Origin: Saccostrea cucullata
Lineage: Eukaryota
Direction: 5' to 3'
DNA: 64,000 bases
Assembly (NCBI RefSeq): GCF_032062105.1
Contig: NW_026938421.1
Coordinates: 248,001-312,000, forward strand
The notes under the pieces were generated by a model. It was not told the DNA's origin. It did no database searches and saw nothing but the letters and a program-made list of their open reading frames with translations. Made by a program: the position numbers and the translations under genes. Of this stretch, positions 4,933 through 60,700 are shown piece by piece. Position 1 is the first letter of the stretch, and the number at the start of each line of letters is the position of its first letter.

Positions 4933-6360
4933 TTTTTAGCTCACCTCAACGATGTTGGGGGGAGCTTATGTGATACCCTCGGCGTCGGTGTCGGCGTCGG
5001 CGTCCTGGCTTAAGGTTAAGTTTTTTGGAGCAGTTTTCTTTTTAAGTACTTCTATGTCCTATATTGATTAGACATGCATGGAAGATGTTTCTAATGTCTT
5101 TCATTGTACCAGTCAAAGTTTCAGATGCTGCAATTTCAGCAGAGGAATGACCAGGTTAATGTTTTTGGTGCAGGTTAACATTTTTGGTGCAGTTTTTGGT
5201 GTAGGTCTCATTTCCGAGTAAGTATAAGCCCTATGTTGACCAAACTTACATGGATGGTACATCTTAGGATGCATACTACCAGACTTGCTTCGGATGCTGA
5301 ATCTGACCTACATTTTCCGGTTTAGTGAACAGGTTAAAATTTTTGGTGCAGGTTTCATTTCCAAGTTTCTATGAGCCCTATAATGACCAAACTTGCATGG
5401 ATGGTACATCTTAGGATGCATATTACAAGACTTGCTTCGGATGCTGAATCTGACCTACATTTTCCGGTTGAGTGAACAGGTTAAAGTTTTTGGTGCAGGT
5501 TTCATTTCCAAGTTTCTATGATTATAATGACCAAACTTGCAATGGTACATCTTAGGATGCATATTACAAGACTTGCTTCGGATGCTGAATCTGACCTACA
5601 TTTTCCGGTTGAGTGAACAGGTTAAAATTTTTGGTGCAGGTTTCATTTCCAAGGTACTATGAACCCTATAATGACTAAACTTGCCTGGATGGTACATCTT
5701 AGGATGCATAATACCAGACTTGCTTCGGATGCTGAATCTGACCTACATTTTCTGGACGAGTAAACAGGTTAAAGTTTATGGTGCAGGATTCATTTCCAAG
5801 TAACTTTGAGCCCTATAATGACCAAACTTGCATGGATGGTACATCTAAGGGTGCATTCTACTAGGCTGGCTTCAGAAGCTGAATCTGACCTACATTTTCC
5901 GGATTAGTGAAAAGATTAGTTTTTTATACAGGTTTCATTTCCAAGTAACTCTGAGCTCTATGTTGAACAAACTTGCATGGATGATACATCTTAGGATGCA
6001 CACTAATGGACTTGCTTCAGATGCTGAATTCGACATACATTTTCCAGATAATAGACCTTGTAAAAGTTATGGGTGCAGGTCTATCACCTTTAACTATAAG
6101 GCTTATATAAACCAAAGTTGCACAAATGATGCATCGAGGGATGAAAACTTCAATCTTTTCAGATGCTGGATTTTAATTACATTTTCATTATGAAGAACTA
6201 GTTTTAAGTTTTTATATAGGTCTATTCCAAAGTATCAAAATTGCACAAATTTTGCATTTTTGGATGTACACTTTTTGTTGGTTAATTGTGTGACTTAATT
6301 TGCCTTACTTAAAGACAACATTCGTTGAGGTGAGCTCTGTAATCTCTGATCACCTATGTT
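4933..6360 (+). mobile_element. Non-autonomous Helentron-like (HINE) element with internal ~147-bp tandem repeats
   Basis: TTTTT start, perfect 15-bp subterminal IR AGCTCACCTCAACGA / TCGTTGAGGTGAGCT (6322-6336), (GGCGTC)n microsatellite; unit marker TGACCTACAT at 5304, 5451, 5592, 5739, 5886. Confidence 0.8.
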
Positions 6361-6393
6361 TAATATAGAAAAAAATGTGAAACACTGATGTCC

Positions 6394-7276
6394 TGTCACG
6401 TGTAGGGGGACGGATTAGAGCCCAACCGGCCTCCCCACAACACTCAGGGATCGCGTCTGATAAGAATCAGACCTTAGGGATAGAACTAAGACACTGATGT
6501 GCGCTGCCAAAATATACAAATATGCGCAACGTATATACAGACTAAATATATTCAACGTTTTTACAGAACATGCCAAGAAAACATACTAAGCCAACGAAAG
6601 TGAAGACGAAAAGCAAACCAGTGCTCTACCGCACAGACAGATCCACAACAGAACAAGACACAGGGTACCACACTTTACAAACACCGTAAAGCGACAGTCA
6701 TACACTTAATTAAATATGACCAAAATTCCAGCACCCTCAACAGGCCATGAATCAACAAATATTAAAGCAGGACAAAACAGTCCAACAACCCTATTGTCTA
6801 ATAATAGTTAGATACTAGGAAATATAGTTTTAACTCCCCCAATCTTCCTAACTCAAGTACCGATGTACATACAATCAACCTAACTACGTCTGCATAAACC
6901 TAAATACGTCTGCCTATCTAAACAGCCTTCTTTGTTCTTCTCAAACCGCGTGCTCTGCACTTCCCACATCTACTTAGACCCCAGGTGTTACATGCCCCCT
7001 TGGGATCAAGTAGATAACCCGTCCACGCGTATTTCGTTGGACATCAGGTAGCAAATACTATTTTATTCACTGCAATGGCAATATTAAATACACAAATATA
7101 CTAAAATGTTAATGCACAGCTTAGATTATCCAACTGATGCTAAGAATTCACTAAAATAAGAGAGTTGGAGAACTGAAGTCGAATAAATCAGGTACAGGTT
7201 AATTGACAAAAAAAGTTCAACATAAATTTAGATTTTTCATGGCCGATTCTCCGAATTCCGGAATACATCCGCGACA
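6394..7276 (-). repeat. 3' LTR of the Gypsy element
   Basis: Bounded by TGTCACG...CGCGACA; directly adjacent to TTACCCCCTCCTT (7277-7289), which reads as the polypurine tract AAGGAGGGGGTAA on the minus strand; 6789-7006 is repeated near 17320-17521. Confidence 0.75.
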
Positions 7277-7599
7277 TTACCCCCTCCTTAATTTTATGCG
7301 TCCTCGCATAAGCATTTTATATTTTATATATTTTTTCTTTTCTTTTTTTTTATTAGCCAATAAACATATAACATGCTCTATTTACATTAATCTATACCTC
7401 TACATTAATATACATATCAGCCCTCCCTTCACCAATATGTTCACTGGACATAGTCTTTATGCCAGATGGGCTGTTTTCTAATCCTCTTGTCAGATCTACA
7501 TCTTGTCCCTAAACATGGGTATCTACCAAATCTTGTGTGTTGAACGATTCAACCTCATCTTCTTCATTGTCTACAACGACCTCATCTGCCAAAATCTGA

Positions 7600-8818
7600 G
7601 GTTTTAGCAGTCAACCTATCGGCATGTATTATCTGCGACTGTTCCTTCTACCTACAGTTGACTTCATACAATAGATCTGATTTCTTTGAAACGATGGTGA
7701 ATGGGTCTCCAAAAGCTCGTAAATTTCGGGGAGTGACCCACCTTTCTCCGAGGAAAGAAAACATATACTTCATCCCCTTTATGAAAGCTTTGCCAGTTTA
7801 TCTTTGCGTCGTGATATCTCTTCTGTCAACGCATTTCCTGACCCGTATGTTGGCGAACTGCACTATGAGCTTCTTCTATACGCTGTTTCAGTTCACAAGC
7901 CCATACATTATGCGGGACGACAGAGGCAGTGGCTGGCATTTCAAACATCACATCAAGTGGTGTCGCCATTTCCCTTCCAAGCATTAGGGCATTAGGAGTG
8001 CACCCTGTCGTCTCGTGTTCTGCAGATCTATAGGCCATCATCACGTACGGAAGGTGGATATCCCAGTCTTTCTGGTGTTCATCTACATATCCGCTGAGCA
8101 TAGTTGCTATCGTTTTATTAAAACGCTCCACCATTCCGTCGGATTTGGGGTGGTATGGAGTGGTTCGTGTCTTTTTAATACCAAGAAGCTGACAGACATC
8201 TGCAAACAATTTGCTTTCAAATTGTGCCCCCTGATCAGCATGGATGACGTAAGGCACACCGAACCGAGTAATAACTTGTTCAACGATGACTTTTGCCACA
8301 GTCTCGGCTTCCATATTTCTCATCGGAAAGCTCACCGTCCATTTTGAATAGTAGTCCGATACTACAAGTATATACCTATTCCCCTTGTTTGTTATGGGTA
8401 ATTCCCCAAGTATATCTGTTGCTATACGCTCCATTGGTGCCCCAACCTGGACAATTTGCATAGGCGATTGCTTTGTCTTTTGAAAACCTTTCCGTTTATA
8501 ATTACTGCATTTTTCACAGCATGCGATGTACGCACGGACATCTGACTGAAGACCTGCATGGCCAATAGTACCGCTGACGGATCTTCGCAACTGCCTTTGT
8601 CATACCTAAGTGACCCGACACCCTGTTTTCATGATGTTCACCTAGAACTGTGCGCCTCTCACTAAACGGCACAGCAGCTTGTAACTTAGTGCCTTTACCA
8701 TCGATGCATCTCCTATACAGTATGTCATCATCAACAATCAAAGCCTCAAATTGTGACCACAGCGATTTGACTACGCGTCCCTCACTACTTATAGCAGAAT
8801 ACTCAGGTCTCTTGCCCT
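7600..8818 (-). pseudogene. Gypsy integrase (frameshifted)
   Basis: HH...GHLG zinc-binding region in ORF 8514-8741; rve core (ERIATDILG, HADQGAQFES, YHPKSDGMVER) in ORF 7826-8590. Confidence 0.9.
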
Positions 8819-10252
8819 CTAAAACCCAATTTTGACCAGTTCTAAAGCAGCATCTTCCTTTTGTAGAGACTTCATATTTGTGTCCGGAGCTATGTTGCGC
8901 ACTTGCGATACAATCGGTTCCTCAGGCATGCAGCACTTCTTGCAAGGAAGTCGACTTAGCGCATCAGCATTACTATGTTGTTTTCCAGGACGGTGTTCTA
9001 TTTTCATTTTAAAATTCCCTAGCGCCTCGATCCATCGCGCTAGCTGACCCTCCGAGTTTTTAAAATTGAGCAACCAGCGCAATGAACTGTGGTCTGTTCT
9101 CACGGTGAATTGCTTGCCGTACAGATAATGTTTGAAATATTTCGTGAAGTTTACCACCGCTAGCAGTTCTTTCCTCGTGACGCAATACTGGCACTCAGCT
9201 TTTGACAGGGTGCGACTTGCATACGCAATCGGTCTTTCAATGCCATCTAATTCATTCATCTGGGATAAAACAGCTCCAATGGCTTGGTTGCTTGCGTCTG
9301 TATCCAGAATGAACTCATGATTATAATCTGGCATTGCAAGTATCGGAGCCTTGCATAATCGCTGCTTTAGATCCCTAAATGCATCCTGACAATCCTGCGT
9401 CCAGTTCATCGCAGCCCCTTTTTCTGTAAGCTTTGATAAAGGTTTGGCCCTTTCCGAAAATTTCTCAACAAAACGCCGATAATACCCGCAGAGACCAAGA
9501 AACGAACGGAACTCACTGACGTTGCAAGGCTCTGGCCAATCCTTTATCACTTTAACTTTCTCTGGACCTGTGGCAACCCCCTCCTCAGATATAACATGGC
9601 CCAAATATAAAACTTCCTTCGCAAAGAGAGTACACTTTTTCGCCTTGAGCTTGAGACCTGCTGCAATGAGACGATCAAAAACAGTCATCAAATTCTGAAT
9701 CATTTGCTCGAATGTTTTACCGACAATGATTACATCATCCAAATATATCAAACAGAACTCCCATTGAAGCCCCGTCATTATCTTCTCCATGAGCCTCTGA
9801 AATGTCGCGGGAGCGCAACTCAGTCCAAAAGGCATTTTCATAAATTGGTATAAACTCTTACGAGTAACAAAGGCCGTTTTTGGAAGGTCCTCTGGTTTGA
9901 CAGATACTTGCCAATAACCGGAAAACAAGTCAAGGGTCGAAAACCATTTGTTACCTTTCAGACTGTCGAGGGACTCGTCTATGCGAGGAAGAGGATACGC
10001 ATCCTGAATGTTCAACTTGTTCAGCTTCCGATAATCAACACAAAAATGTGTCGAACCATCCTTCTTCTTCACAAGTACAACCCCTGCAGCCCAAGTACTG
10101 GATGATGGCTCAATTATTCCATCTCTCATCATTTCTTGCACTTGCTTGTCAACCGTTTCAGTGGCATGATATGGGAGACGGCGAGGGGGTTCTTTTACAG
10201 GTTTAGCGTTCCCCACATTAATTTCAAGCTCGATAACATTGGTGAAGCCCAA
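8819..10252 (-). pseudogene. Gypsy reverse transcriptase + RNase H portion of pol
   Basis: CVDYRKLN, MPFGL, YLDD catalytic motif, LDTDAS RNase H motif, TDHSSL, NADALSR; bounded by a stop at 10256-10258 and a frameshift near 8820. Confidence 0.93.
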
Positions 10253-10255
10253 GTC

Positions 10256-18950: not shown

Positions 18951-19431
18951 TCATAATTCCATGTGTCCATAATGTTTTGTCAGCTTGCGTTGACATGGAA
19001 GATCATTTTTTCTATAATGATCCACAAGTTCTGAAAGTCGCTCAAAGTAGGTTTTCTCTTCAAGATAAATTTTGTCTTCTTCCTAGAATGACAAATTGTT
19101 TTTTTGTAATTAAAAGAAACAAGATGTTTTTGTGAAACACTGATGCCCCCGTATGGCAATATGGCAAAGATTAAACTTTTCTCAAGTGCAAATTTTTAAA
19201 TATATTGAATATAATATATTAAATAATCATATTGGTACAAAAAGTAGGGTATTCTCACTGGAAATACAATTCTCAAATATGAAAGTAGGCCAAGGTTAAA
19301 GTTTTTTCATAAGTACGGAAATCTTCAAGGTTAAGGTAATCCAATGCAAGGTCTTGCCACAAAAAATACATACGTAAATTATGGAAGCCTTAGCCCTCGT
19401 TTAGAACTTATAGCCAAGCTTAAAAAAATTT

Positions 19432-19462
<31 letters not shown>

Positions 19463-22400
19463 AATTTGCTATCAAATGAAAGGTCTTGTCACAAGGATTA
19501 AATATGTAAAGTATGAAAGCACTAGCCCTAACCCTTTAAAAGTAGTGGTCAAGGTTTGCTTTTTAAAGAAGGTCAAATGTCAAGGTCAAAGGGTCAAAGT
19601 TCTTGGCATCCAATGAAGGGACTTCTCACAAGGGTTACATATATGAAGTATGAAATTACTAGCCTTTACCGTTCAAAAGTTATGGCCAAGGTTTAAGTTT
19701 TTTCTTGAGTACGGAAATCTCCAAGGTCAAGATCATAATGTCAAAATTGTTGGTATCCATTAAATGGTCTTTTCTTCACAAGGAATACATGTATGAAGTA
19801 TAAAAGTCCTAGTGTCTACTGTTCAAAAGATATGGCCAAAGTAAAAGTTTGGAATTTTTGTGTAAAAGTGGGTCAAACTCCAAGGTCAAGGTCAAAAGGA
19901 CAAATTTGGTGGTACCCAAAGAAAGGTCTTGTCACAAGGAATACACATGTGAATATGAAAGTCATAGCTCCACTAAATCAAAAGTAATGGGCAAGGTTAA
20001 AGTTTTTGCGGACAAACAGACAAACAGAGAGACAGACTGACAGACAGACGGACGGGCGCGACAAAAACTATTTACCCCGAAACTTCATTTACGGGGGCAT
20101 AAATACTTCGTTTACGGGGGCATAAAAATATCGACTGTATCAGCTTTAAGTTTAAAATGGTACTTCCAGTTCCAGTACACGACCACTGTGGCACAGAGGT
20201 CGTGTACTGGAACTGGAAGTACGCGAAGTATGTCTACTCCATACACTGAAATACTATTTCTATAAACTTTATATAAAGAAAAAAATCAAATTGGTTCTAA
20301 AGAACTGCGAATGATAGTATTGTTCTCCCGCCTACCTCTAAGTCAATTTTCAAAAGTTAACATATTAGATGAATTTTTAATGTATTTTATAGAAAATTAT
20401 ATGGATTTTCATAAAATATTACTTATTTGGAAAAACAAAGAGAGATAACTTTAAAATTTTGGAAAATACTGTGTTTTTCACTATAGAAATCAACGGAAAA
20501 CGGAAAATATTTTTAAAACATCTTTCCCCCCAGTGTCACAAAAATTCCTTTTTACAGGTAATATGGAATGTTATTTCACAAATTCATACCAAAGCTTTTT
20601 GTGTGACACTGGGGGGAGGGGGGGCATTATGTTTATTGACAAAAAACGATAAAACTGCTTATTTTTCACCAATTTCAAAGCGATTTACAACTGAAACATT
20701 ATATTTTATTAATATATTTATGTTTTATTTATTTGCCAAAGACATAAGAAAAGATATAAAGAACATTTAATCATATCCAAGACTATTTCAAAATATGGTG
20801 ATGCTTGAAACTCCGATTTCAATGGAAAATATCGTCTACCCCCCTTTTTTCAAGAGCTGGAATTATGGATAATTTACTGTTTAGCCCTGGTATTAAGACA
20901 ATACATCAATTAGCATTGAACTGTTCTTTGTATTAAACAAAGATTTTATGGCCAAATTGCTATTTCTATTAAATTAAATGGTTCCAGAATGTAGGCGGGA
21001 ATCGAGAGTTAGCGTGCGTATTTCTTTTCCGCATTTGGTCAAATTAATATATTTTGGTAATTTTAAAGCTGTAGATTGTCATCTTTATCAGAAAATGTCA
21101 AAATTTGCGATTTGCTAGAAACAAGCATGCAACAGTATCCCCACCCCAACCAATAAAACGCACATGAACAGAAACAAATAATATGCATATTAATTACAAC
21201 ATGAAAATGATTGTGATTTAAAGTGACCCCATCGTCTCAAGCCACGGTCCGGAGTCCGCATATAGCTCTCTCCTACAGAATGGGAGAAGATCGTACATTT
21301 TGGTCGCAAACGACGATGAAGTGCCGCATACCTTTTTGTATATCCTGTATTGTAATTCACCAGCAGGACCTGAGACAACCAATACCTACAGGCAAAAATA
21401 GGTATTGAATAAAATAAATAAATTACTTTATAACTATTTTAAAAATCCATTCCTTAATTACCCTATTTATATTGCAATTTACGTGTATCTGTTTTTGTTT
21501 GTATGCTACTGCACTGACCAGTGCAACTGTTATAAGTTTCTTGGTTTCTTACTCTCCTGGAATAAGCGCTAACTGTTACTTTTGTTGCTACCCAGTGTGT
21601 ACATTAGTGATATAGCATACATGAAAGTCCGTCTACACAGGCACTGAACAATGACTAAGTGAACACCTTATATAGAGATCCTCAGATATAACGATTGAAT
21701 AGAGGAATATGGCGGACGAATTCCTTCTACGAATCGATTCCAGCTTTACTGATCGAAGAGCAAAAAGGACTATGAACAAAACTCTTTTCGGACTTAATTT
21801 GTGTACGCCGTATTAAAACATAATCAAATACCAGGTATCTTTGTGCACAGAAATTTAATCGCATGTGCCACTTTTAAGTCCAGTTGGTTGTCTGTCAATT
21901 ACATAACTTAAATTAGACTTGTTACATACTTACAAACATGACTTTATCGCCACCCGTATTAGACTTCCGAATGAGAAATGTTCCAACAGCTTCATCTTTT
22001 ATTGCACTATAACAAATTTAAAGATTATCTAAATATTGATTTCAAATCTCTCTCCTCCTCCTCCTTCTCTCTCTCTCTCTTACCTTTTAGCCTCTGGAGA
22101 ATTCCCTTCAAAGAGAGGCAAGTCAGCCACCTGAAAAATTGAGATTTCCCATAAAAAATAATATAATTCAATCACGGAATTATTAATGAAAGGATATTTA
22201 CCTCAGCCTTAGGACTGAGATACGAATCCGGGCGCGATATTTCGTCTCTTTCATTTACGGGAACGGCTGGTTGGGGTCTAGCTTTATATGACTCAGACAC
22301 AGACCGAGCTAGTTTACCCGGTTTAGCGGTCGGTGGCTCGGGCTTCGTGGTTGGTGGCTCCATTAGAATGTCGTCATAGTTATCAGATGGCGAGTCGTCA

Positions 22401-25400
22401 GAATCATTGCTCACCGAGTCGTTAGAACTACTCTTTGGTGTCATGGGACGAGCTGGCAAACTTTTGGTTCTGTTTATTGATGGTATTGCTGAAAAGATGG
22501 TCGTTTCATGTAAGTCTAGTAAAAAGCTCTTAAGAGTATTACCGGTATATAATGTATGTATATGGTACTGAGTATTTTAGAATTATAAAGACAAATATCA
22601 AATAAACTTTACGTGGCAACTTAGAGTAGCGTTTTTTGGCGGTTTTCGGTGAGTCCTTAGGGAGGTCTTTCAGGAAGTCTTCTGGCATCTCATCTATGTA
22701 GCTGTAACGATTAGGATCAGTCCCTTTCCCGAAAATATCCACCTTCCAACCATCTTTCGTTCTAGAAGTAAAATAGCTTTCAATGAATTGTTAAAAACAC
22801 ACGTGCATATTGTGAACACAACATTTCTGGGTTCTTTTTAATTCTATCACAGTCACTTACATTTCAGTTGGCAATGTCAAGTTGTTTGCAACATGTAAAG
22901 CCTTGTATATAGCGATAAGCCACCCCTGCAAAAAAGGGAGTACCCAACATTAAAGAGACGAGTATAATTTATTTGAGAACGATCCAGATCAAAAAATGAG
23001 AAATATTTGTAAGATGTAAGTTTGCCATCACGTATTGTTTCGATTCTGGAAGTCTTGGATAAGTGGAGGTTGGTATAAAAAATTAAAAGAATGAAACGTT
23101 TGTAGACATGTTACTACATGAAACTTTTTTTTTCAATCTTAACGACAGAGGAACGATATCAATCTGAAATGCAAACATGAACCAGAAATCTCTCACGAGA
23201 CTGTAGCTCTGCTGTGTGTGTGTGTGTGTAATCATATGAATTGTGGTCCCCCGCTTTCGGTTCTTTGTGGGTGAGATGTTATTTTTATGACATACCGGTA
23301 TTGTGTCTAATATGAACACCCTATCATATGTCATTTATTTAGAAATCATCATTGAAGTTCATTTTTTTTAAATAATCGTGAAGGTCAAGGTCAAGGGGTA
23401 AGAAATCATAACATGCTCAGAATCATCTTGTCACAGGTAATGCACATGTCATATATGAAAGCCCTATCTCTTCTCAATATAAGAAATAAGATGTGTTTAT
23501 GAAACACTGATGACCCCGAACGGCAATATACATGTAACCAAGATTAAAATTTTCTTAAATGCAAATTAAATATATTATTACCCAAAGTAGGGTTTTTCTC
23601 ACAACAAATACAATTGTGAACTACAATATCTCCAGAACCACCTGTTCAAAAGCTATAGTCGAGGATAAATATTTGAAAAGTAGGTCAAACTCCAAGGTGA
23701 AAGGGTCTGAGTTGTTGGTTTCTTAAGAAAGGTCTTGTCACAAGTAATACATATGTGAAGGATGAAAACCCTAACCCTTACCGTTCAAATGTTATGTAAA
23801 GGTTTAAGTTTTTCATAAGTAAGTAAATCTCCAAGGTCAAGAGGTCAAAATTGTTGGTATCCAATGAAAGGTCTTGCCACAAAGAATACATATGTGAAAT
23901 ATGAAAGTCCTAGTATCTACCGTTTAAAAGTTGTGACCAAGGTTAAAGTTTTTAAAAAATAGTTCAAACTCCAAGATCAAGGTCAAAGGGTAAAAGTTCT
24001 TGGTGTCCAATGAAGGGTCTTCTCACAAGAATTACACATGTGAAGTACAAAAGCCCTAGCCCTTACCGTTCAAAAGTTATGGTCAAGGTTAAAGTTTTTA
24101 CATAAGTACATAAATCTCCAAGGTCAAAAGATTAAAATTGTTGGTATCCAATGAAAGGTGTTGTCACAAAGAATATATATGTGAAATATGAAAGTCCTAG
24201 TACCTGCCATTCAAAAGCTATGGCCAAAGTAAAAGTTTGGAATTTTTGTGTGAAAGTCAAACTCCAAGGGCAAAAGGTCAAATTTGGTGGTACCCAAGAA
24301 AGGTCTTGTCACAAGGAACACACATGTGAAATATGAAAGTCATAGCTCCACTAAATTAAAAGTTATGGGCAAGGTTAAAGTTTTGTGAGGACAGTCGGAG
24401 AGGCGAATGCGAAAGCGGGGGACAAAAAAGCAGCATTTGGTCTTAAACTTGTAGGTATGGAAACATTAATAAATAAATATTTTGATTATACGCTATTCAA
24501 TCTGGCAGAATAAGTAAATAAATGTTGATTATGGTAATGTGTATACATAATGATATATTAAGAATAGATTAAAAAATGACTGAAGTTTGACTGGCCTGTC
24601 GCGTTTGGTTGTCAGAGGCAGAAAAGCAGTGCTCCTTCAGGAATTCCTCATGACCGGACCTAGGGATAACCTTAAAACAATTCTCCATATCTGCTCGGGT
24701 AAAGCATTCTAATCTAAAAATAGATTATTATAATGAATTGCCGAGAGTTTTTTCACAATTTTGTTTTGTTTTTAATTTAAAGTTTAGTATAATTTTTGCT
24801 GAACTTCTATTCTTCGGAAACATCTCAAACATTACTCGGATTAAAGATGTTCATATTTAATTTTTTGCAAAAAGACTAATATTTAATAGGACTGGAATTC
24901 TTTGCAATGATTATTAATATTCTACACTTTGTACACGATATCAGTTTACTAAATGGGTAACGTTATAATACCTACCGACAATAGTTCTCAAATGAGAACG
25001 CCGTTTTTGATTGTGTAGATTGGTCATTATCGAAAACATAACAACACCCATTTCTTAAGACGACAAAGAATTGTCTCCCTGTAATAAAACATCGAATTTT
25101 GATCTAAGTATGTATATGCAAAAATGTTTTAAGGTTCTTTTTAATAGCTACTATATAACTACAGATATGGATTATTTCGATGAGATTTCATATCCTTACC
25201 ACAAAGAAAATTTTCCTTCAATCTTTTAAAAAAAAAAATCGGTGAACGGATGTAAATCTAAAATATTAATGTTTAACTTTGATCTATAAATGATTTCAGC
25301 CTATGATTAACGAGAGTATAAAAGAACAGTCGAAATGAGTTGAACATTAACACTTACACTTAACAAACTTGCTGAGCAGGGTCCTCTCTAACCCTCCCTC

Positions 25401-38100: not shown

Positions 38101-39998
38101 GATGATAACACTTGATTAAAATTTATTTCCTTAGAGCGAATTTAAAATAAAATTTGTTTGAAAATATTATGAGTAGTTACTACATGTGCGATACTGAGAA
38201 CCCATCTTCACTCCATTCTGATACCAACAGCTGACCAAGTGTAAATGAATCTAATTTTCCATTACATATGTCACATAACAAAAATTCGTTCAGGACTTCT
38301 TTATCTTTTAACTAGTACTTCATTAAATTACATTCGCTTTGCTTCAACGTAATGCACAAAATAAAGCATTCAAGATGCGTTGGAGTAATTGGCATTTATC
38401 ATACATACTAGTAAATCAAGAGTGTCCTTCTTGTTCATTTGTTTAATCAGAAGCATCCTTATGGTTTTGTATTTTTGTACTCATATTTCAAGTACAAAAA
38501 GATAGCGATAGGGCACCAGTCATGCTAAAGTAGTAAAGTGTTGCACTATTTGAAGCGTTACGTCAATATACTTCCGTAGAATAAAACGTTAAAAACGTCA
38601 CCAACATCAAGAATAACGTCAAGTAGGTGATATGACATATTAATAAATCAAAATTCAAGAAGAAAAAAAAATGTACAATGTGTATATAAACCTACCTGCT
38701 TATAAAAGCATCTCTAACAAGGAAGTGTTCAATTCTGCTTTGACAATGATTGGAATTTAACTCAGTTCGCTCTATCAAAACGCGGAATGGAACACCGGAC
38801 AATGTTAAAAAAAGAAATGGAAATGTCAATCGTTTGCAGTACTGTAAAGTACCTTCATAGTGGTATATGAGAACTCATTAACTAAGCTTACTCTTAACTC
38901 ATTTTCAGTTCTTCCTCTTTTGATATGGAATGTCAACTGTAACTACTTTGCCAGTTGAGCTGTATACAAGTGTTCGAAATATTCACTGTCATTACCATGA
39001 GACAGGTGCAATAGTAACTAGTGCTAATTGTAACGGGAACCGTTACAGATGTTCCCCAAACGCTCCCCAACTCCCTTTTGGTGCCATATTCCCTGTAAGC
39101 CTATTTAATAAGACAACATCTGTGCATTTTTGACTTTAAGAACCTTTTCCCAAAAGGATACCAATTATATTCAAATTTTAACATTGCACGCGTGCCTATG
39201 TGAATGCACGTGCATAATGATCATATAATCTTGTCTACACTTTTTATATATTTAAATATACTTTATATGAAAGCATTTAGTCCAAAAGTATTAAAAATCA
39301 CTCATTCAAGTGTATTTTCAATTTCACTCGTTCCAAATGCACGCACGTGCGTGCACGTGCATGATGACCATACCTTCTTGTAGGAGGCCCTTATATCTAT
39401 CTATGTTCTAAATCTCAACCTGTTTGGTTGAAAATCAAGGGAATTATAGCCATTTCAAGTTTCAGCCAATCAGATTGCAGCACACGTGCATCCACGTGAT
39501 TTCAAGAATTTTTTCTTAATCATATTGTAGAATATCGTAACGCATAACTATGTTTTAAATTTCAAAGCATTTCGTCAAAAATCAAAGGAGATATGTCCAT
39601 TTAAAGTTTCAGCCAATCAGATTGCAGCACACGTGCATGCGAGTGATTTCTTGAAATTATTTGTATATCATATTGCAGGATATCCTAATGCATGACTATG
39701 TTTTAAATTTCAAAGCATTTCGTCAAAAAATAAAGGAGATATAGCCATTTAAAGTTTCAGCCAATCAGATTGCAGCGCACGTGCATGCGCGTGGTTTCTT
39801 GAAATTTTTTGTATATCATATTGCAGGATATCCTAATGCATGACTATGTTATAAATTTCAAAGCATTTCGTCAAAAAATAAAGGAGATGTAGCCATTTAA
39901 AGTTTCAGCCAATCAGATTGCAGCGCACGTGCATGCGCGTGGTTTCATGAATTTTTTTTCCATATTATGTTGTAGGATATCCTAATTCATGACAATGT

Positions 39999-41190
39999 AA
40001 ACCAGAAGTCTCTGTCGAGACTGTAGCTCTACTGGTTTGTACTGATCAAAAACCGATGCACAGAATTATGTATCTTAGTGTAGTGTACTTGTGTGATAAG
40101 TTATATTGAAATCAGACCAAAACTGTAGAAGGAGTAGCATTTTAAAGGAATTCCACAGAAAATTCTACTTTTAGTAACCATGGCAACACCGTTCATTGAA
40201 ATCAAAAACCGATGCACTATTACACTGTAAATAAGTGTAGTTTACTTGTGTGCCAAGTGATAATGAAATCAGACCAAAACTGTAGAAGGAGTAGCGTTTT
40301 AAAGGAATTTCTCAGAAAATTCTATTTTTAGTAACCATTGCAACACCGCTCATCGAAATCAAAAACCGATGCACTATTTTATGTATCTTAGTGTAGTCTA
40401 CTTGTGTGCCAAGTGATATTGAAATGAGACTAAAACTGTAGAAGGAGTAGCGTTTTAAAGGAATTTCAAAGAAAATTCTAATTTTAGTAACCATTGCAAC
40501 ACCGTTCATTGAAATCAAAAACCGATGCACTATTTTATGTATCTTAGTGTAGTCTACTTGTGTGCCAAGTGATATTGAAATGAGACTAAAACTGTAGAAG
40601 GAGTAGCGTTTTAAAGGAATTTCTCAGAAAATTCTATTCTTAGTAACCATGGCAACACCGCTCATCAAAATCAAAAACCGATGCACTATTTTATGCATCT
40701 TAGTGTAGTCTACTTGTGTGCCAAGTGATATTGAAATGAGACTAAAACTGTAGAAGGAGTAGCGTTTTAAAGGAATTTCACAGAAAATTCTATTTTTAGT
40801 AACCATGGCAACACCGTTCATCGAAATCAAAAACCGATGCACTATTCTATGTATCTTAGTGTAGTCTACTTGTGTGCCAAGTTATATTGAAATCAGACCA
40901 AAACTGTAGAAGGAGTAGCGTTTTAAAGGAATTTCTCAAAAAATTCTATTTTTAGTAACCATGGCAACACCGTTCATCGAAATCAAAAACCGATGCACTA
41001 TTTTATGTATCTTAGTGTAGTCTACTTGTGTGCCAAGTTATATTGAAATCAGACTAAAACTGTAGGAGGAGTAGCGTTTTGAAAAATTGTTTACAGACAG
41101 ACGGACAGACAGACAGACAGACAGACGGACGGACGCCGGACGCATTACTATCGCATAAGCTCTTCTGGTCTCTGACCAGTAGAGCTAAAA
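39999..41190 (-). mobile_element. Helentron-like family C copy 1 with 156-bp tandem repeats, inserted in family A copy 1
   Basis: Absent from the homologous position in family A copy 2 (~42413); subterminal IR AGCTCTACTGGT / ACCAGTAGAGCT; (GACA)n microsatellite 41094-41140. Confidence 0.85.
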
Positions 41191-41577
41191 ATTTCAAAAC
41201 ATTTCGTTGGAAAACAAAAGAGATATTGAGATTTTTGTTTCAGCCAATCAGAGGAAGGCGCACGTGCATGCGCGTGAGTTCATGCTAATTTGACAGTGTC
41301 ATATTATTAACACTTTTAATATATCTTTATGTAATGAGTTTCAAAGCATTTCATCAAAAAATGTAAAAGGTATAGCTATATTAAGTATGTCAGTCAATTC
41401 ACTCATTTCACGCGCACGCACGTGCAGGCGTATGCGCGCAAAATGACCTTCGTTCCGCACACCTACACTACACACCTATTAACCCTAAAAAGGTTTTAGC
41501 TCAGTTGGGTGAACAGTTTCTGAGAACACTCGCGGACAAAAAAGTACCGGAGAACAAATAAGAAAAAAAATAATAAT

Positions 41578-42871
41578 AACTAGTGCTAATTGTAACGGGA
41601 ACCGTTACAGATGTTCCCCAAACGCTCCCCAACTCCCTTTTGGTGCCATATTCCCTGTAAACCTTATCAAATAAGACAACAACTGTGCATTTATGGCTTT
41701 AACAACGTTTCCCAGAAGGATACCAATTATATTCAAATTTTAACATTGCACGCGTGCACATGTGAATGCACGTGCGTAATGATCATATCATCTTGTCTAC
41801 ACTTTCTATATATTTAAATATACTTTAAATTAAAGCATTTAGTCCAAAAGTATTAAAAATCACTCATTCAAGTTTATTTTTAATTTTACTCGTACCAAAT
41901 GCACGCACATGCGTGCACGTGCATTATGACCATACGTTCTTGTAAGAGGCCCTTATATCTATCTATGTTCTAAATCCCATCCTGTTTGGTTGAAAACCAA
42001 GGGAATTATAGCCATTTCAAGTTTCAGCCAATCAGATTGCAGCACACGTGCATCCCCGTGATTTCATGAATTTTTTTCTAAATCATATTGTAGGATATCC
42101 AAATGCATGTCTACGTTTTAAATTTCAAAGCATTTCGTCAAAAAACAAAGGAGATATAGCCATTTAAAGTTTCCGCCAATCAGATTGCAGCAGAGATGCA
42201 TGCGCGTGATTTCTTGAAATTTTTGGTATATCATATTGTAGGATATCCTAATGTATGACTATGCTTTAAATTTCAAAGCATTTCGTCAAAAAACAAAGGA
42301 GATATAGCCATATAAAGTTTCAGCCAATCAGATTGCAGCGCACGTGCATGCGCGTGATTTCATGACATTTTTTCCATATCATATTGTAAAATATCCTAAT
42401 TCATGACAATGTTCAAAATTTCAAAGCATTTCATCAAACAAAAGAGATATTGAGATTTCTGTTTCAGCCAATCGTAGCATGGCTCACGTGCATGCGCGTG
42501 AGTTCGTGCTAATTTGACAGTGTCATATTATTAACACTATTAATATATCCTTATATAATGAGTTTCAAAACATTTCATTAAAAAATGTAAAAGTTATGGC
42601 TATTTTAAGTATATCTGTCATTTCACTCATTTCACGCGCACGCACGTGCAGGCGTATGCGCGCAAAATGACCTTCGTTCCGCACACCTACACTACACACC
42701 TATTAACCCTAAAACGGTTTTAACTTAATTGGGTGAACAGTTTCTGAGAACACTTGCGGACAAAAAAGTACCGGAGAACAAATAAGAAAAAAAAGAATAA
42801 TAATAATAATAATAATAATAAGAAACCGAGTAAAAACAATATGTTCCCAAACTCCGTTTGGGGAACATAAT
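41578..42871 (-). mobile_element. Helentron-like family A copy 2 (uninterrupted)
   Basis: Direct repeat of 39016 onward; both termini present; (AAT)n microsatellite near 42796-42821. Confidence 0.85.
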
Positions 42872-45800
42872 AACTAGAAACTCTTGTTGCTACAGCAACA
42901 AATAAGGTCTTCCGTTCTCCTCTATTTATCTGTATGCAGGATGTTTTTTTCTATTTAAAAAAAGACAGATATATCATAAACTAGTAGACTAATTGTTCAG
43001 TGAACAATTATCGGCCTTTCCATCTTTTTAAGCATTTCAATATCATTTGGGCTGAAGAAAGTAGAAAAAAGCCAAAAAATAAATAAAACAGCAAAATTTT
43101 CATTTCTCTACAAGGATTTTAGATCGGGCTCGTAGTTGGTATAAATATACTCTAAACAGACTTCCTGGATTATACGAGTCGACTCGGGGATAACCACGAT
43201 TTCATTGATCACGCAAAGAGAGCGCCTTCAAAACATTGTAACACGCTCCTAGGTGCATATATCAGCTTGAATGAGATTGTTTTCGAGTTAAGATGTAAGG
43301 GGTAGGGTCTGATTAAAATCATGATATACCTAATAATATGAATAACATGCATTTGATCTGCGCATCAAGACGGAAGCGTAAGTGAAAACGTTGTGAAATG
43401 TCCCATGTGTACCTGCATCATATGTGCATTATACATGTATTAAAGAGATGTTTGAAAAATATCCGATTTGAGTTGTTTTATGTTTGAAATGAATGGCGAT
43501 AAATTATTTAAGAGCATGTGAGAAACATGAGCGAGAGATGCAAGCCAGTTTGTAATTATAGAAAAGGAAAACAGAGAATCGGGTTCGGATTTTAATAATC
43601 CTGACCGAAATAGGTATGGAATATGTGTGTGGATTAAATTCATTGTAAGTAGCATAAATAAATTCCAAATAGGTATTTCTAGATGTGAAACACAGGGAAC
43701 AAATGTGTATTGCTTTTTACTATGTTGAAAGCCGCTATTTCTTATAAGATTGTGTTATTCTAGAAAAAAAAAAATCAAATTTCAAATGAAATCAAGATTC
43801 ATTCAATTAATATTAAATCTAAATAAAATTGAAATAAATTCCACATAGCAAAGAAAGCTAGAATACTTGGTATTAAAATGTCGTATTAGAGCAGGAGAAT
43901 CGAATGATATTAGCAACAAATGAAGAAATAGCCAATGCAAGCTTTAATTTATTTTATGCCCATCAGAATTTAAATTTCAGACAGAAACAAATGCAGTTTT
44001 TGCCGATATTCCGTAGAATTTCACTAAACTCAAGAGACTCACCTTAAAACTCTTAGGACACTTTCTTTAAGGTGTCTACTACTCAAATCCTTTATCTTAT
44101 GTCGATCTGTGGTGTCTTTTCAGAGGTAGAAGTTTTTTCTATGTTGCTATTGATTTTTTTCTAGGGACGGGAGGGGGGGGGGGGTTTAATAAGCATTTGT
44201 TAAAATGAGAGTTGTTAATACCTGCACAAACTTAAGCTTGATTGTGACCTTTGGGTCAATGGGGGTCAAAAGTCAAGGTCATTATCAAGGTCAAAGGTCA
44301 AGGTCATCAAAAAGAGAGAGAGAGAGAAAGAGAGATATTAACTTGAGATTAACACTTGAAGCTGAATCTAGATAAAGGTAATGAATGTTTCTTTATTACT
44401 TTTTGAGTAAGGGTCAAAGGTCTCATTTTGAGGACAAGAAATCACATGACCTGAATAAAGTAAATTTTAAAAGAAGATATTTGAGGTTACTCTAGACATT
44501 TGCAGTCTGAATAAAATGTCCCAAAATCATATCAAATACTTTCTTATCAAAGATATGTATGGGATAGTGCGATACTCAATTTATGCAATTTTTCTCTCAT
44601 AATTGAAAGTCGTCGTTTTTCTTACCAGTGGGACTACATATCTCGAAACTACAAGTAAGATGCTATAAGGTAACACTAAGAAAAATTCCATTAAGAAAAA
44701 TTTAAAATTTTGATTTATTTGATCACTTCCTGTGACAACCGGAAGTGACGGCGGACAATCTTAAACTCAAAAGATGTATCAACTCATCAAGGCCTACCAT
44801 CCCTATTAATTTGGTGTCTTAGTCTCTTACCGTTTACGAGATCTAGCTATGATAACTTCTGATTTTGAGGACAGGAAGTCACGCGACCGGAAGTGAATTT
44901 TAATGAGATATTAGACATTACTGTAGACATTTGCAGTCTGAATAACATATCTAAAAATCACTACAAATACTATAACTATAAAAAAATTTTAAGGGAAAGA
45001 AAGATACTCAAATTATGTAGTTTTCCTCTTTTAACCGGAAGTTGTCATTTTGTTTCCGTTGGGACTGATACATTTCGAAACTTCAAATAAGATGCTATAA
45101 TGTGATGCAAAACAAGTTTCAAAAAAGAAAAGTTGATTTTTTTTTAATTTCTTTGATCACTTCCTGTGACGACCGGAAGTGACGGCAGACAATCTTACCC
45201 CAAATAGTTTTGCCTACATATCAAGATATATTACTCATACAAGTTTGGTGTCTTAATCTTTTACTGTTTACGAGATCTAGCTATGATAACTTCTGATATT
45301 GAGGACAGGAAATCATGCGACCGGAAGTAAATTTTACTGAGATATTATACATTACTGTAGACGTGTGTAGTCTGCATAAAATATCCAAAAATCATTACAA
45401 ATACTTTATCTATTAAAAGAATTTATGGGAAAGAAAAATACTCAATTTATGTAGTTTTTCTCCTTGAACCGGAAGTTGTCATTTTTGTTTCCGTTGGGAC
45501 GGATACATTTCGAAACTACAAATAAGATGCTATAATGTAATGCAAAAAAAGTTTCAATAAAGAAAAGTTGAATTTTTCGATTTCTCTGATAACTTCCTCT
45601 GACGACCGGAAGGGACGGCGGACGATCGTACTCCAAATGGTTTTGCCTCCTAATCAAGATCTACCACTTGTATAAGTTTGGTGTCTTAATCTCTTTCCGT
45701 TTACGAGATCTAGCTATGATAATTTCTCATTTTGAGGACAGGAAATCACGCGACCGGAAGTGAATTTTACAAAGATATTTGACGTTACTGTAGACATTTG

Positions 45801-46402
45801 CAGTTTAAATAACATATCCAAAAATCATTACAAATACTTTATCTATAAAAACTATTTATTGGAAAGAAAAATACAGAAAAAATGCAGTTTTTCTCTTATA
45901 ACCGGAAGTTGTCGTTTTTGTTTCCGGTGGGACTGACATATTTCGAAACTACAAATAAGATGCTATAATGTGATTCAAAAAAAGTTTCATAAATGAAAAG
46001 TTAAAAATTTCAATTCCTTTGATCACTTCCTGTGACGAACGGAAGTGACGGCGGACAATCTTATCCCAAATGGACATGCCTACTAATCATGATCTATTAC
46101 TCGTGTAAGTTTGGTGTCTTAATCTTTTACCGTTTCTGAGATATGACTCAGACAAAACTTTTTTGAAAAAAGCGGAAATCGGACATATCTGACGACCGGA
46201 AGTGAATTTTGAAAAACTGAAAACTGCATCTGAAAGATATTTTTACACTCTATCAACCCTGAAAATTTCATGAGAATCTGTCCTGTCATCTCTGAGAAAT
46301 CGTGCTTTTAAAAAGGGAACAAAAATAATAATAGGAAAAAGAAAAAGAAAAAGAAACAGTAGAATCACTATAAGGTCTTCCGTCTGAAACGGAAGACCTT
46401 AA
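42872..46402 (-). mobile_element. Helentron-like family B with ~433-bp higher-order tandem repeats
   Basis: AACTAG + hairpin TTGTTGCTACAGCAACAA + subterminal IR TAAGGTCTTCCG at left; TAAGGTCTTCCGTCTGAAACGGAAGACCTTA at right; units at 44739, 45173, 45606, 46039. Confidence 0.82.
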
Positions 46403-46863
46403 TAAGAAACAGAGTAAAAACAATATGTTCCCAAACTCCGTTTGGGGAACATAATTAACGGTTGATGGGTCGAATTAATCTTGAAGAAGTAAAACACCAT
46501 TTTTTTAAAGCAATATGAGCTGCAACTTTGAAATCAAAATTTTTTTTTGTAAATAACTACCAGGTGTAAGAGTCTGAACTAGGAACAGAATCCATTGCTA
46601 ACCTTCGCTGCAGAACTGTAGCGTTATGACTTTAAGCATTAGTCTTTGACCATAACACTATAGATCCCCTGAAAGTTAAGGAATGTGGCTAAAACGAAGT
46701 GAAAGGTCTTTGACTGACTAATGCTGGGAGGTGAAGAAATTCTTCCCAATGATGCGCACAAAATCGCGCTCTGTAAATTACACTTTATTTGCATTAAGGG
46801 ATCTGCGGCGTTTTCGTCGGAGACTAATTCAGTGGAAGTGTGTAACTTCATATTGAAACGCCA

Positions 46864-47345: not shown

Positions 47346-47451
47346 TACATTGAAATAAGACAAACTCTAGGAGTAGCGTTTTGATAGAATTTCACAGAAA
47401 TTGTGTTCATTAACCATGGCAACGCCCTTCAACATAATCAAAAACCGCTAA

Positions 47452-54488: not shown

Positions 54489-54533
54489 TGTTTTTACTTC
54501 TACTGATTTCGTTAATTGATGCCTAAGTATAAC

Positions 54534-54581: not shown

Positions 54582-54589
54582 TTACGAAG

Positions 54590-56961: not shown

Positions 56962-57022
<61 letters not shown>

Positions 57023-57051
57023 CTGTCGTCGTTGTTGTCGTCGTTGTTGTC

Positions 57052-57135
<84 letters not shown>

Positions 57136-57390
57136 GGTGAAGGGGATTCAAGTTTGCTCAAATGTAGGGCCACACCCTTTTCCAAGGGGAGATAATCATG
57201 AATTTGTTAAAAATTAATGGCATTTTTAAAAAATCTTCTTCTCCAGAACCGCTGGGCCAGGAAAGATGAAACTCATGTGGAATCATCCTCAGGTAGTGTA
57301 GATTCAAGTTTGTTCAAATCATGACCCCGGGGCAAGGGTGGGGCCAAAATGGCCGACCCAAGTTTTACATAGGAATATGTAGGAAAAATC

Positions 57391-57424
<34 letters not shown>

Positions 57425-57556
57425 GGAAAGATGAAACTCATGTGGAATCATCCTCAGGTAGTGTAGATTCAAGTTTGTTCAAATCATGACCCCCGGGGCA
57501 AGAGTGGGGCCAAAATGGCCGACCCTAGTTTTACATAGGAATATATAGGATAAATC

Positions 57557-57590
<34 letters not shown>

Positions 57591-57722
57591 GGAAAGATGA
57601 AACTCATGTGGAATCATCCTCAGGTAGTGTAGATTCAAGTTTGTTCAAATCATGACCCCCGGGGCAAGAGTGTGGCCAAAATGGCCGACCCAAGTTTTAC
57701 ATAGGAATATATAAGAAAAATC

Positions 57723-57755
<33 letters not shown>

Positions 57756-60700
57756 TGGAAAGATAAAATTCATGTGGAATCATCCTCAGGTAGTGTAGAT
57801 TCAAGTTTGTTCAAATCATGACCCCCGGGGCTAGGGTGGGACCAAAAATGGCCGACCCAAGTTTTACATAGGCATATATAGGGAAACCTTTTAAAATCTT
57901 TTCAACAAGTACTTCAAAGCTATGATTAGTGATATTTATATGGAATCATCCTCAGGTAGTGTAGATTCTAATTTGTTCAAATGATGAACGCCTGGAGGGG
58001 GGGGGATAAATTCAAGCCCGATGTGCTCAGGTGAGTGCTGTGGCCCCTGGGCCTCTTGTTAGATTGTACTAGGAAATCTTTAGAGAAAAAATGGTACTTA
58101 TCTTATTAAAATATTGCTCCTTCCTTAAAAAATTCAGAAAATGGCCCAATGACTTCTCAGTAATTTGATTCAGGTGAGCATTATGACCATAAACATTTTG
58201 GTGTAATCACAGGCACCTGACGCTACTTATTTTTCTTTTAATAAAAAAATATTCCCCCACCTAATAATTAGTAACGTCAGGTGCCTGTGGGTTTAATGTA
58301 CTGTTTTATGTCTCTAGAAAATCAAGTATGGTATAACTATTTCTTTTCTTTACAGGTGTGGACATTGTAAGAGATTGTCCCCTACATGGAACGAGTTAGC
58401 TAAGTTATACAACCCCATGATAGATCAACCACTTATTATTGCTAAGGTAACACACTCTGAAGCATAAAACATGTAAATACATATAATATACACATAATCT
58501 CATTTAAGGACAGATGATACAAACAAATATTTGTCAAAAGCTATGAAATTAACAACCTGAGTCATGTTTAATTAAGTAAAATGAATATCTTTCACCGTGT
58601 AGTTTTTAATTTTTTATTCAAATTTGCTCAAAAATGGAATCTGAAGTGAAAAATATTTGTATAGATTAATATGGATGGTTTCAGAAGGGCAGACTTTTGA
58701 ACAATTCACACAGGGTTTACAATTTCTTTATATTCTAGAAATTTATTATTTGCATCATTTGCAATAAAATTAGGCCAAAAAATATATACCAATCCAGGCA
58801 TCCATTTTTAGCTCTACTGGTCAGAGACCAGAAGAGCTTATGCGATAGTAATGCGTCCGGCGTCCGTCCATCTGTCTGTCTGTCTGTCCGTCTGTCTGTA
58901 AACAATTTTTCAAAACGCTACTCCTCCTACAGTTTTGGTCTGATTTCAAAGGAACTTGGCAGACAAGTAGACTACACTAAGATACATAGAATAGCTAGTG
59001 CATCAATTTTTGATTTCGATAAACGGTGTTGCCATGGTTACTAAAAATAGAATTTTCTGTGAAATTCCTTTAAAACACTACTCCTCCTACAGTTTTGATC
59101 TGATTTCAATATAACTTGGCACGCAAGTAGACTAAACTAACATACATAAAATAGTGCATCGATTTTTGATTTCGATGAACGGTGCTGCCTTGGTTACTAA
59201 AAATAGAATTTTCTGTGAAATTCCTTTAAAAAGCTACTCCTTCTACATTTTTGGTCTGATTTCAATATTACTTGGCACTCAAGTAGACTACACTAAGATA
59301 CATAAAATAGTGCATCGGTTTTTGATTTCGATGAACGGTGTTGCCGTGGTTACTAAAAATAGAATTTTCTTTGAAATTCCTTTAAAACGCTACTCCTTCT
59401 TCATTTTTGGTCTGATTTCAATATTACTTGGCACACAAGTAGACTACACTAAGATACATTAAATAGTGCATCGGTTTTTGATTTCGATGAACGATGTTGC
59501 TGTGGTTACTAAAAATAGAATTTTCTGTGAAATTCCTTTAAAACGCTACTCTTTCTTCATTTTTGGTCTGATTTCAATATTACTTGGCACTCAAATAGAC
59601 TACACTAAGATACATGAAATAGTGCATCAGTTTTTGATTTCGATGAACGGTGTTGTTGTGGTTACTAAAAATAGAATTTTCTGTAAAATTCCTTTAAAAT
59701 GCTACTCCTCCTACAATTTTGGTCTGGTTACAATATACCTTGGCACACAAGTAGACTACACAAAGATACATAAATTAGTGCATCAGTTTTTTGATTTCGA
59801 TGAACGGTGTTTCCATTGCTACTAAAAATAGAAATGTCTGTGAAATTCCTTTAAAACGCTACTCCTTCTAAAGTTTTGGTCTGATGGCAATGGCTCCTTT
59901 TTACTCATCCTTTGTTATAAGTACAAACCAGTAGAGCTTCAGTCTAGACAGAGACTTCTGGTTTTGTTTGTATCATCTGTCCTTAAGCAACATAAACACA
60001 ATTTTATGAATACAAATATATGTCATCTACAAGATGAAAAATTTTGTTGAATGAGAATGTTGATAATTGAAAATCGATGTTTTTTAACGAACTGAACACT
60101 GGAATTTGTTATTCAGGTGGATTGTACAGTAGAAACTGCTCTTTGTGCCAAACATGAAATCACAGGATACCCCACTCTGAAGTTCTTCCCTGACAGATAT
60201 TCTGAAGTTGTACGCTACAAGTCAGCAAGAGATCTGCAGTCCCTTCAGACTTTCATTGAGGAACAGCTGTCAAATGTAAAGTAGACCTTGTTATGTACCA
60301 AATTGAATTACTTAAAGCAGCAAAACATAAGAATGGAGACATGTTTTCAGTCTGTTCCTCCTGACCTGTGTTTTGTCTTTGGGACAGGCTCCAGAACAGA
60401 CAGAGGAGAAGAATCAGCCGTCGTCAGGACTGTTTGATCTGACCGACGACTCCTTCCCTAAACACATAGAGAGAGGGAGCCACTTCATCAAGTTCTACGC
60501 TCCGTGGTGCGGTCACTGTAAGCGACTGGCCCCCACCTGGGAGGAACTGGCCATGCATTACCTGGGGCAGGAAGAGGTGTCTGTGGCTAAGGTACAGGAT
60601 ACTGTATACAGGGTTAATTACACTTGTTGTGCTTGCTTTTCACACTTACAAACGATTTTGTCTTGTTCTGCCCAGACACAGTTGTTTTTAGAAATAACCT

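Follow-up and report, generated by a model that had tools for sequence, protein, structure and literature searches.

A shared backbone with a variable transcription-factor motif slot in the nucleosome-sized repeats of oyster HINE elements

The repeats considered here come from a stretch of 64,000 nucleotides of the Saccostrea cucullata genome (contig NW_026938421.1, positions 248,001 to 312,000, forward strand; the window in what follows, with positions counted from its first letter), in which HINEs, that is, non-autonomous Helentrons, of six families carry arrays of ~150-bp units. We find that a backbone, TCTC-N25-AAAYTT, is common to all six families, always in one orientation, and that a transcription-factor (TF) motif stands 67-94 bp downstream of it. 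As far as can be judged from their sequences, the ~150-bp units are descendants of this one backbone. We propose that the array may well be a selfish chromatin-opening module with an interchangeable site for a host factor, a reading which we consider promising and stop just short of calling probable. The interchangeable TF-motif slot in HINE units is apparently new; no description of it was found in the literature within our reach, which left out most subscription papers.

Results

HINE elements and their repeat units

Subterminal inverted repeats (subTIRs) of 12-16 bp, with one mismatch allowed, were found in seven of the seven elements tested (E, D1, C1, C2, A2, B and G). The left ends are predicted to fold into hairpins (-9.0 to -13.9 kcal/mol), followed by microsatellites, and right-end palindrome hairpins are present in A2, B, C1, C2 and G, and in imperfect form in D1 and E, where they resemble those of C. 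gigas Cg_HINE_8 and Cg_HINE_7, respectively. The element ends abut T runs, and the elements have no coding capacity, a single stop-to-stop frame of 120 aa, in C2, being all that occurs in them. Since inverted repeats, left hairpin, microsatellite and right palindrome occur together in seven of them, the elements are HINEs. For G, the Box 1 left end and the GTGGCCC-type palindrome agree by eye with C. gigas Cg_HINE_1/2, and the 166-bp unit, also compared by eye, resembles CgiSat01b.

HINE E, 4933..6361, plus strand: 147-bp array (5191-6045) with a ROR-type site at +67 relative to the backbone anchor; ends resemble Cg_HINE_7.
HINE D1, 19112..20128, minus strand: units of ~132-156 bp with NR5A/ERR-type sites; left hairpin duplicated; ends resemble Cg_HINE_8.
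HINE D2, 23480..24393, minus strand: units of 139-146 bp; left end truncated.
HINE A1, 39008..46455, minus strand: units of 148 bp that bear NF-Y, E-box and NRF1-like sites; apparently holds the nested HINEs C1, A2 and B.
HINE C1, 39999..41191, minus strand: 156-bp units; RFX X-box at +77; inserted into a unit of A1 precisely where this unit has its backbone anchor.
HINE A2, 41578..42872, minus strand: a lead unit, then a 148-bp array.
HINE B, 42873..46405, minus strand: 433-bp higher-order repeat with subunits of 137, 148 and 148 bp and one ETS-like site in each.
HINE G, 56962..58058, plus strand: Cg_HINE_1/2 type with a Cg170-like 166-bp array; YY1-like site at +83 adjoining a GC box; intronic.
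HINE C2, 58805..59964, plus strand: 156-bp units, most of which have a decayed RFX site; intronic.
Backbone of the lead unit of G, as an example, 57079..57132, plus strand: TCTC-N25-AAACTT with its anchor at 57113.

Four HINEs are nested or stacked at 39008-46455, A2 and B apparently within the T-rich microsatellite of A1. The nesting of C1, A2 and B within A1 is our inferred reading, and the left end of A1 is probably the fragment 46400-46455, which self-BLAST pairs with 42816-42871. When the junction of C1 with A1 was set against A2 by eye, no duplication could be seen, with about 6 bases not assignable. In B, a cluster of NR5A-type sites lies at 44240-44310, beyond the ETS array, so that two motif types occur in one element. 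Two solitary degenerate units of family C, with decayed RFX-like sites, stand outside any intact element (47341-47447 and 47768-48050).

A sequence-only reading of this DNA had given every family a unit length and a TF motif of its own, and the periods and motif counts were recovered where that reading had placed them. Periods of 147 (5191-6045), 137/146 (19429-19694 and 23644-24384), 148 (39445-39998 and 41993-42505), 156 (40045-41080 and 58912-59885), 433 (44421-46142) and 166 (57229-57987) were measured. The string AAATGTAGGTCA has five copies, every one on the minus strand and all in element E; YCAAGGTCA has 15 copies in the window, nine of them within the two D elements; AGCCAATCAG (seven copies) is restricted to the A elements and AAAATGGCCG (four) to the Cg170-like array; nine of the 11 copies of CCGGAAGT lie in B; and GTAACCATGGCAAC occurs exactly five times (four in C1, one in C2), the remaining C units bearing variants. 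The factor names put on these motifs are those in general use or those of the sequence-only reading, none being drawn from a motif database. When the unit consensuses were dinucleotide-shuffled, any motif of an 11-motif panel appeared in just 4-10 of 400 shuffles; the panel is post hoc for the window, and the loci outside are therefore the real test.

A backbone common to six families

The backbone extends from -34 to +20 around its anchor and continues more weakly to about +45; the first one directly follows the left-end microsatellite. When spaced word pairs were enumerated in 12 window segments, TCTC-N25-AAA ranked first (six segments, three families), and none of the words holding two G/C or more came up in six segments in any of 150 shuffles. 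As an obvious relationship links two of the six segments, the enumeration taken alone is modest evidence.

Outside HINEs were retrieved with a left-end-only pattern, which gave 121 loci in one of the 64 parts of the metagenome collection; from the 126 metagenome matches, 44 with less than 70 nt beyond the microsatellite were excluded. A scan of prokaryote bins gave 48 matches; 31 of these were judged by eye to be of host origin and kept, 16 being dropped as chance bacterial matches and one as a mirror duplicate, and a scan of viral contigs gave two matches, both by chance. The prokaryote bins, among them G001 (L123-L156, L171-L187) and G003, contain many contigs of animal hosts, with intact Helentron Rep-helicase frames of up to 2420 aa. 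TCTC-N25-AAAY was found in 44 of the 82 outside metagenome elements (6 of 18 clusters), while every other spacing from 15 to 40 gave 0-7 elements.

A backbone profile was trained on 57 outside elements (19 clusters), the window being excluded. On the forward strand it scores E at 13.4, A at 5.0, C at 19.1, G at 30.2, D at 9.1 and one B subunit at 7.5 bits, against shuffle maxima of 0.2-6.7 (60 shuffles each), with all reverse strands below 0; with such maxima the margins of A and D are slim. The profile scan did not detect the backbone in two of the three B subunits; in B it occurs in the lead unit and in a single subunit, with the ETS site at a distance of 70-71 bp. Hits of at least 3 bits number 44 in the 13,025 bp of ten element segments and 11 elsewhere in the window, fewer than the 12-22 of shuffled windows. 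In the outside elements, 27 of the 34 intervals between successive backbones measure 133-175 bp (of the others, one is 108 and six are 260-361 bp, hits less than 80 bp apart being excluded by design), and this spacing is also kept between successive units which are not identical.

The six families had been described as unrelated and without obvious mutual homology; this no longer holds, as a profile trained elsewhere scores all six. What looked like convergence on 140-166 bp is largely common descent, since the backbone is shared, and an independent origin of the six families is rejected on this ground. One backbone is also common to families with different subTIRs, which fits a constraint on the side of the host.

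The motif slot outside the window

From 126 backbone hits, 36 were dropped for having less than 100 nt downstream, and the remaining 90 outside units form 23 clusters, four of which were left out of the profile in the analysis that covered motif strings and periodicity. The motif strings of the sequence-only reading, with mismatches allowed (one for 10-12-mers, two for the 14-mer, none for 8-9-mers), match 11 of the 23 clusters, while letter-permuted strings match 1.05 on average and six at most, and none of 400 permutations reaches 11. The 11-motif panel of consensuses, to which NRF1, SP, CREB and ZNF143 were added from the Puffin promoter list and CTCF after it had been sighted, matches 14 clusters (permuted mean 1.0, none of 2000 reaching it; at most five clusters in 100 dinucleotide shuffles of the units): YY1 in five, ROR in four, NR5A, NFY, SP, CREB and CTCF in two each and RFX in one.

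All 20 placements of a motif in an outside cluster fall at +53 to +105 from the anchor, those of the window at +67 to +94, and YY1 stands at +73 to +75 in five clusters whose +30 to +60 region is just 32% identical. Within the units, motifs for ROR, NR5A, NFY, YY1, SP, CREB and CTCF reach 3- to 37-fold the density that they have in 160,590 bp of flanking sequence, and 32 of 40 A/T tracts of at least five bases are at +60 or beyond, i.e. on the motif side. Two 156-bp HINE units (L146 and L158) each carry a CTCF-type core at +53 and, judging from the sequence, may form tandem arrays of insulator sites. In cluster 7 (L081, L008, L010, L101 and others, from one host), the far part of the unit keeps the word CATGGGACCCTATGGGAG, which is outside the panel and is a candidate site of an unidentified factor.

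As had been suggested, a canonical motif of a ubiquitous TF in the ~150-bp unit is a general feature of these elements: it recurs in HINEs of other hosts, beats the permuted-motif and shuffle nulls, keeps to a fixed slot and varies less than the bases around it; the independent origin of the families that was part of this suggestion falls.

Conservation and exchange of the motifs

Seven outside clusters with several members were used, and in the six that were pooled the motif columns deviate from the consensus in 18 of 419 cells (4%) as compared to 736 of 4911 elsewhere (15%), copies not being independent of each other. For E, C, G and D of the window pooled, motif mismatches are 12/308 versus 293/3647 elsewhere; by family they are 0/60 versus 53/675 in E, 2/54 versus 128/786 in D and 0/40 versus 39/624 in G. 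The expectation that motif positions are kept better than the rest of the unit holds in E, D, G and the six outside clusters and fails for RFX in C. Families A and B were left out of these counts, their units having been cut at the motifs. All three B subunits retain the ETS-like word, and in the remainder of their sequence they resemble each other no more than shuffles do.

Backbone identity is 0.45 both for pairs of units with the same motif (n=23) and for pairs with different motifs (n=167; p=0.31), so that similarity of the backbone does not predict the motif. RFX and YY1, and likewise the YY1-like site and SP, were found on backbones that can be aligned: of two YY1-bearing units compared, the downstream part of family C aligns with one (scores of 18 and 10, against a shuffle maximum of 13), and for G the scores with SP-bearing units are 25 and 23 (shuffle maxima 12 and 14). 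Motifs also alternate between units of a single element, for example YY1 and then SP. The YY1-like site had been taken for a general feature of Cg170, which cannot be maintained: the C. gigas CgiSat01a/b entries, as far as accessible and compared by eye, lack AAAATGGCCG, and homologues of the G unit elsewhere have an SP/KLF-type GC box at the position of the YY1-like word, so that the YY1 label of the Cg170-like unit is weak. ETS-like sites are retained in C. gigas CgiSat06 and NR5A-type sites in CgiSat21, by eye and in the available part of the entries.

Autonomous Helentrons

One contaminated bin (G001), with contigs of a host other than that of the window, gave eight Rep-helicase matches, while the same search in five further sequence sets gave none (0/5). 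The contig L181 has a frame of 2016 aa with Rep, PIF1, endonuclease and OTU domains and, ~700 bp downstream of it, a 139-bp array whose backbone scores 16.9 bits and which has NR5A-type sites; no separate left end precedes this array, which indicates that the module can belong to an autonomous element. In L182 a 162-bp array with NR5A-type sites lies downstream, with no scoring backbone.

Discussion

Proposed function and the points against it

We suggest that the array of ~150-bp units would keep the element accessible to a transposase supplied in trans. In the germ line or early embryo the slot would be bound by host YY1, NF-Y, ETS/GABP, RFX, SP/KLF, CREB, CTCF, NR5A/ERR or ROR, and one site with A/T tracts per nucleosome length would destabilise or reposition every nucleosome of the array, so that Rep-helicase would have more frequent access to the terminal hairpins. 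It would then be the copies whose site is intact that multiply; any factor able to compete with a nucleosome would suffice, which would lead to motif turnover, and host genes would be affected incidentally, if at all. The promoter motif set of YY1, NFY, ETS, SP, CREB and NRF1, as given in the accessible part of its description, overlaps the slot motifs (bioRxiv 2023.06.27.546584), and single factors of the promoter type are, by the portion of another report available to us, able to open chromatin alone (bioRxiv 2026.04.27.721063). The A/T tracts on the motif side fit destabilisation of nucleosomes as well as their phasing. From what is accessible on Helraiser, it forms circular intermediates and prefers open chromatin as a target (PMC4778049), and by analogy one may speculate that bound factors steer the circles to active regions.

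A number of observations weigh against this proposal. Neither the conservation nor the WW/SS dinucleotides show a 10-bp period (five tests over 25 unit families, permutation p 0.26-0.93), which disposes of the periodicity suspected by eye and leaves positioning of nucleosomes by the backbone unsupported. Usual nucleosome repeat lengths exceed many of the units (137-156 bp), and therefore a full nucleosome with a free linker per unit is unlikely. The RFX site is kept no better than the rest of C (10/154 versus 73/1562). When all spaced words are admitted, six segments were reached in 18 of 150 shuffles, and a gapless Gibbs search on six or eight unit consensuses failed to recover the backbone, its scores, at or slightly above the shuffle maxima, not being counted since they came from 60 restarts on real and 20 on shuffled data. 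Taken as exact strings, the motifs match only 2 of the 23 outside clusters, a number equalled in 13 of 400 permutations, and the ETS, NRF1 and ZNF143 motifs of the panel match none of the 23. The IUPAC forms of the panel, its CTCF entry and the +45 to +105 window were chosen after the outside loci had been seen, and the clusters have ancestry in common and represent a restricted set of hosts; their counts are therefore not independent events. Nine of the 23 clusters, the largest among them, have no panel motif; in the largest a conserved unassigned word takes its place.

Other explanations

The backbone could alternatively be an iteron-like site of the Rep-helicase and the slot factor its direct co-factor in loading or nicking, with chromatin opening secondary, much as parvovirus HUH origins are assisted by host factors. 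The fixed orientation of the backbone relative to the ends, the spacer of exactly 25 bp, the first backbone right after the left-end microsatellite, the confinement of the backbone to HINEs in the window (44 hits versus 11, below shuffles), the missing nucleosomal periodicity and the array of the autonomous L181 all speak for such an origin module. We still consider it unlikely: the backbone is common to families with unrelated subTIRs and presumably different transposases, a direct protein-protein co-factor is hard to square with about ten unrelated factor families, and two B subunits keep motif and spacing without the backbone. It is also rather improbable that the arrays are a promoter or enhancer of the autonomous Rep-helicase gene, passively retained in deletion derivatives. 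The slot motifs are promoter motifs, NR5A-type arrays adjoin two of the eight Rep-helicase contigs of bin G001 (L181 and L182), and in Caenorhabditis, by the accessible part of the report, heat-shock element (HSE) arrays lie upstream of a heat-induced Rep-helicase gene (PMC6927752). However, the arrays of L181 and L182 are 3' of the open reading frame (ORF) and not upstream, contigs with appreciable upstream sequence (L180, L184, L185) have no upstream backbone hit of at least 6 bits, the two-unit array upstream in L183 looks like a separate HINE, and motifs are conserved and exchanged within non-coding families. Little or no sequence is available upstream of the Rep-helicase ORF in L181, L182, L186 and L187. 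No backbone array was seen directly upstream in the eight contigs, half of them 5'-truncated, and a role as upstream promoter like that of the Caenorhabditis arrays is not indicated.

Selection at the level of the host, which would keep the arrays as clusters of TF sites or as CTCF sites for regulation or chromatin architecture, has precedents in Helitron-borne HSE and MSL sites, and G and C2 are intronic in a housekeeping gene adjoining a head-to-head promoter. We regard it as very unlikely, since conservation is seen between the masters of families and hosts while individual insertions decay (in C2 the RFX site is exact in one of six units), and most elements of the window are nested in other repeats. 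Just as doubtful to us is that the motifs have no function, one ancient unit having been inherited and the motifs being chance or mutationally neighbouring words picked post hoc. The common descent of the backbone is real, the YY1, RFX and NF-Y words have short cores in common, as do those of NR5A and ROR, and both the non-independence of the clusters and the nine panel-negative ones suit this explanation. But permuted motifs on identical sequences give about 1 of 23, the words for ETS, CTCF, SP and CREB are not neighbours of other motifs, motif columns are ~3.5-fold more conserved despite CpG, and seven motifs are enriched over flank. Among these readings we prefer the chromatin-opening module with an interchangeable host-factor site.

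Relation to known systems

Drosophila DINE-1/DINE-TR1, as far as the accessible description goes, are likewise HINEs with a core, a microsatellite and central repeats (PMC4067079), and the title of Dias et al. (2016), 'Chromatin modulation and tandem insertions', names a chromatin role. The published Cg_HINE elements of C. gigas, in the parts of the two reports accessible to us (PMC7492417; PMC8268682), are built in the same way, with subTIR, inverted repeat, microsatellite, central repeats, 3' subTIR and palindrome and with a fixed orientation of the array. Their monomers measure 138-181 bp, the ends of our G match those of Cg_HINE_1/2, and E and D resemble Cg_HINE_7 and Cg_HINE_8. Central repeats of 140-180 bp in fixed orientation had thus been published already (PMC7492417), and the nucleosomal size of the monomers had been remarked on (PMC8268682). 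The difference is that the accessible parts of these papers treat most unit clusters as unrelated and contain no TF motifs, cross-group backbone or slot.

The satellites BIV160, Cg170 and CvA are described, in the portion available to us, as having two conserved blocks in common (PMC5139131). These blocks probably overlap the present backbone, which is an extension of known blocks and not their first sighting. In that portion the blocks were tested as junction signals and found unsupported as such; here, unlike in the BIV160/Cg170/Pearl CvA comparison as far as accessible (PMC5139131), the backbone reaches into families that had been classed as unrelated and goes together with a variable TF slot.

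Rolling-circle elements which spread TF sites are also known from Caenorhabditis, with the HSE arrays (PMC6927752), and from D. miranda, with the MSL sites of ISX (PMC6417741). According to the accessible parts of these reports, each of the two systems involves one inducible or specialised factor, with occupancy demonstrated; ours has predicted sites for many ubiquitous factors, in one slot of a unit of nucleosome length.

In the Pacific oyster, eleven satellites are Helitron-associated and make up 64% of the satellitome, by the accessible part of its survey (PMC8268682). With such a dominance, supposedly inert repeats may carry sites for housekeeping factors and CTCF. Monomers of 164, 166, 433, 437, 441 and 622 bp among the Helitron-related satellites of C. 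gigas, taken from the part of the data available to us, fit multiples of ~145-165, while for those of 134, 177, 811 and 2077 bp simple multiples fit less well. The top satellite of C. virginica, in the accessible portion of its description, has a monomer of 436 bp, near the 433 bp of family B (PMC11136912).

It is quite possible, though we would rather leave it below our proposal for the arrays, that Helentrons across marine invertebrates use a standard cassette of nucleosome length, a conserved backbone with a plug-in slot for about ten ubiquitous chromatin-opening or architectural factors, which is selected for their own replication. If true, such a cassette would account for satellite-like monomers near 150 bp and its multiples, would have spread housekeeping-type or insulator sites by the tens of thousands, and unassigned slot words would mark sites of unknown factors. 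Nucleosome-sized satellite monomers and the function of their conserved blocks are a long-open question, mostly answered by assertion, and the backbone, the slot and the A/T tracts, with natural motif swaps, make it directly testable. Sites for housekeeping factors and CTCF in such repeats would bear on how enriched motifs and the evolution of regulation are to be read in bivalves, and they point to a general route by which non-autonomous transposons could compete for a transposase.

Other features of the window

A head-to-head gene pair lies at 54488 (minus strand) and ~54895 (plus strand), ~400 bp apart, with CCGGAAGT at 54607. We take the two genes to be RPLP1 and a TXNDC5-like gene, going by the translation and a thioredoxin match; G and C2 are intronic in the latter. 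The word at 54607 is the ETS word of family B, and the pair may be used as a built-in positive control in chromatin assays.

An LTR (long terminal repeat) retrotransposon with broken frames occupies ~6380-17520, with an LTR match between 6801-7006 and 17313-17521 and with matches to reverse transcriptase, RNase H and integrase; it is interrupted by a Harbinger/PIF-type element with a MADF frame (12147-12914, plus strand) and a DDE_Tnp_4 frame (14459-15205, minus strand). A G-skewed minisatellite of 16-bp repeats, 7.4 kb long, extends over 30269-37667 and holds a duplicated block of 50-bp palindromic repeats (33940-34074 and 37017-37151). The same repeat is found at both ends of a foldback-like element at ~26690-27570.

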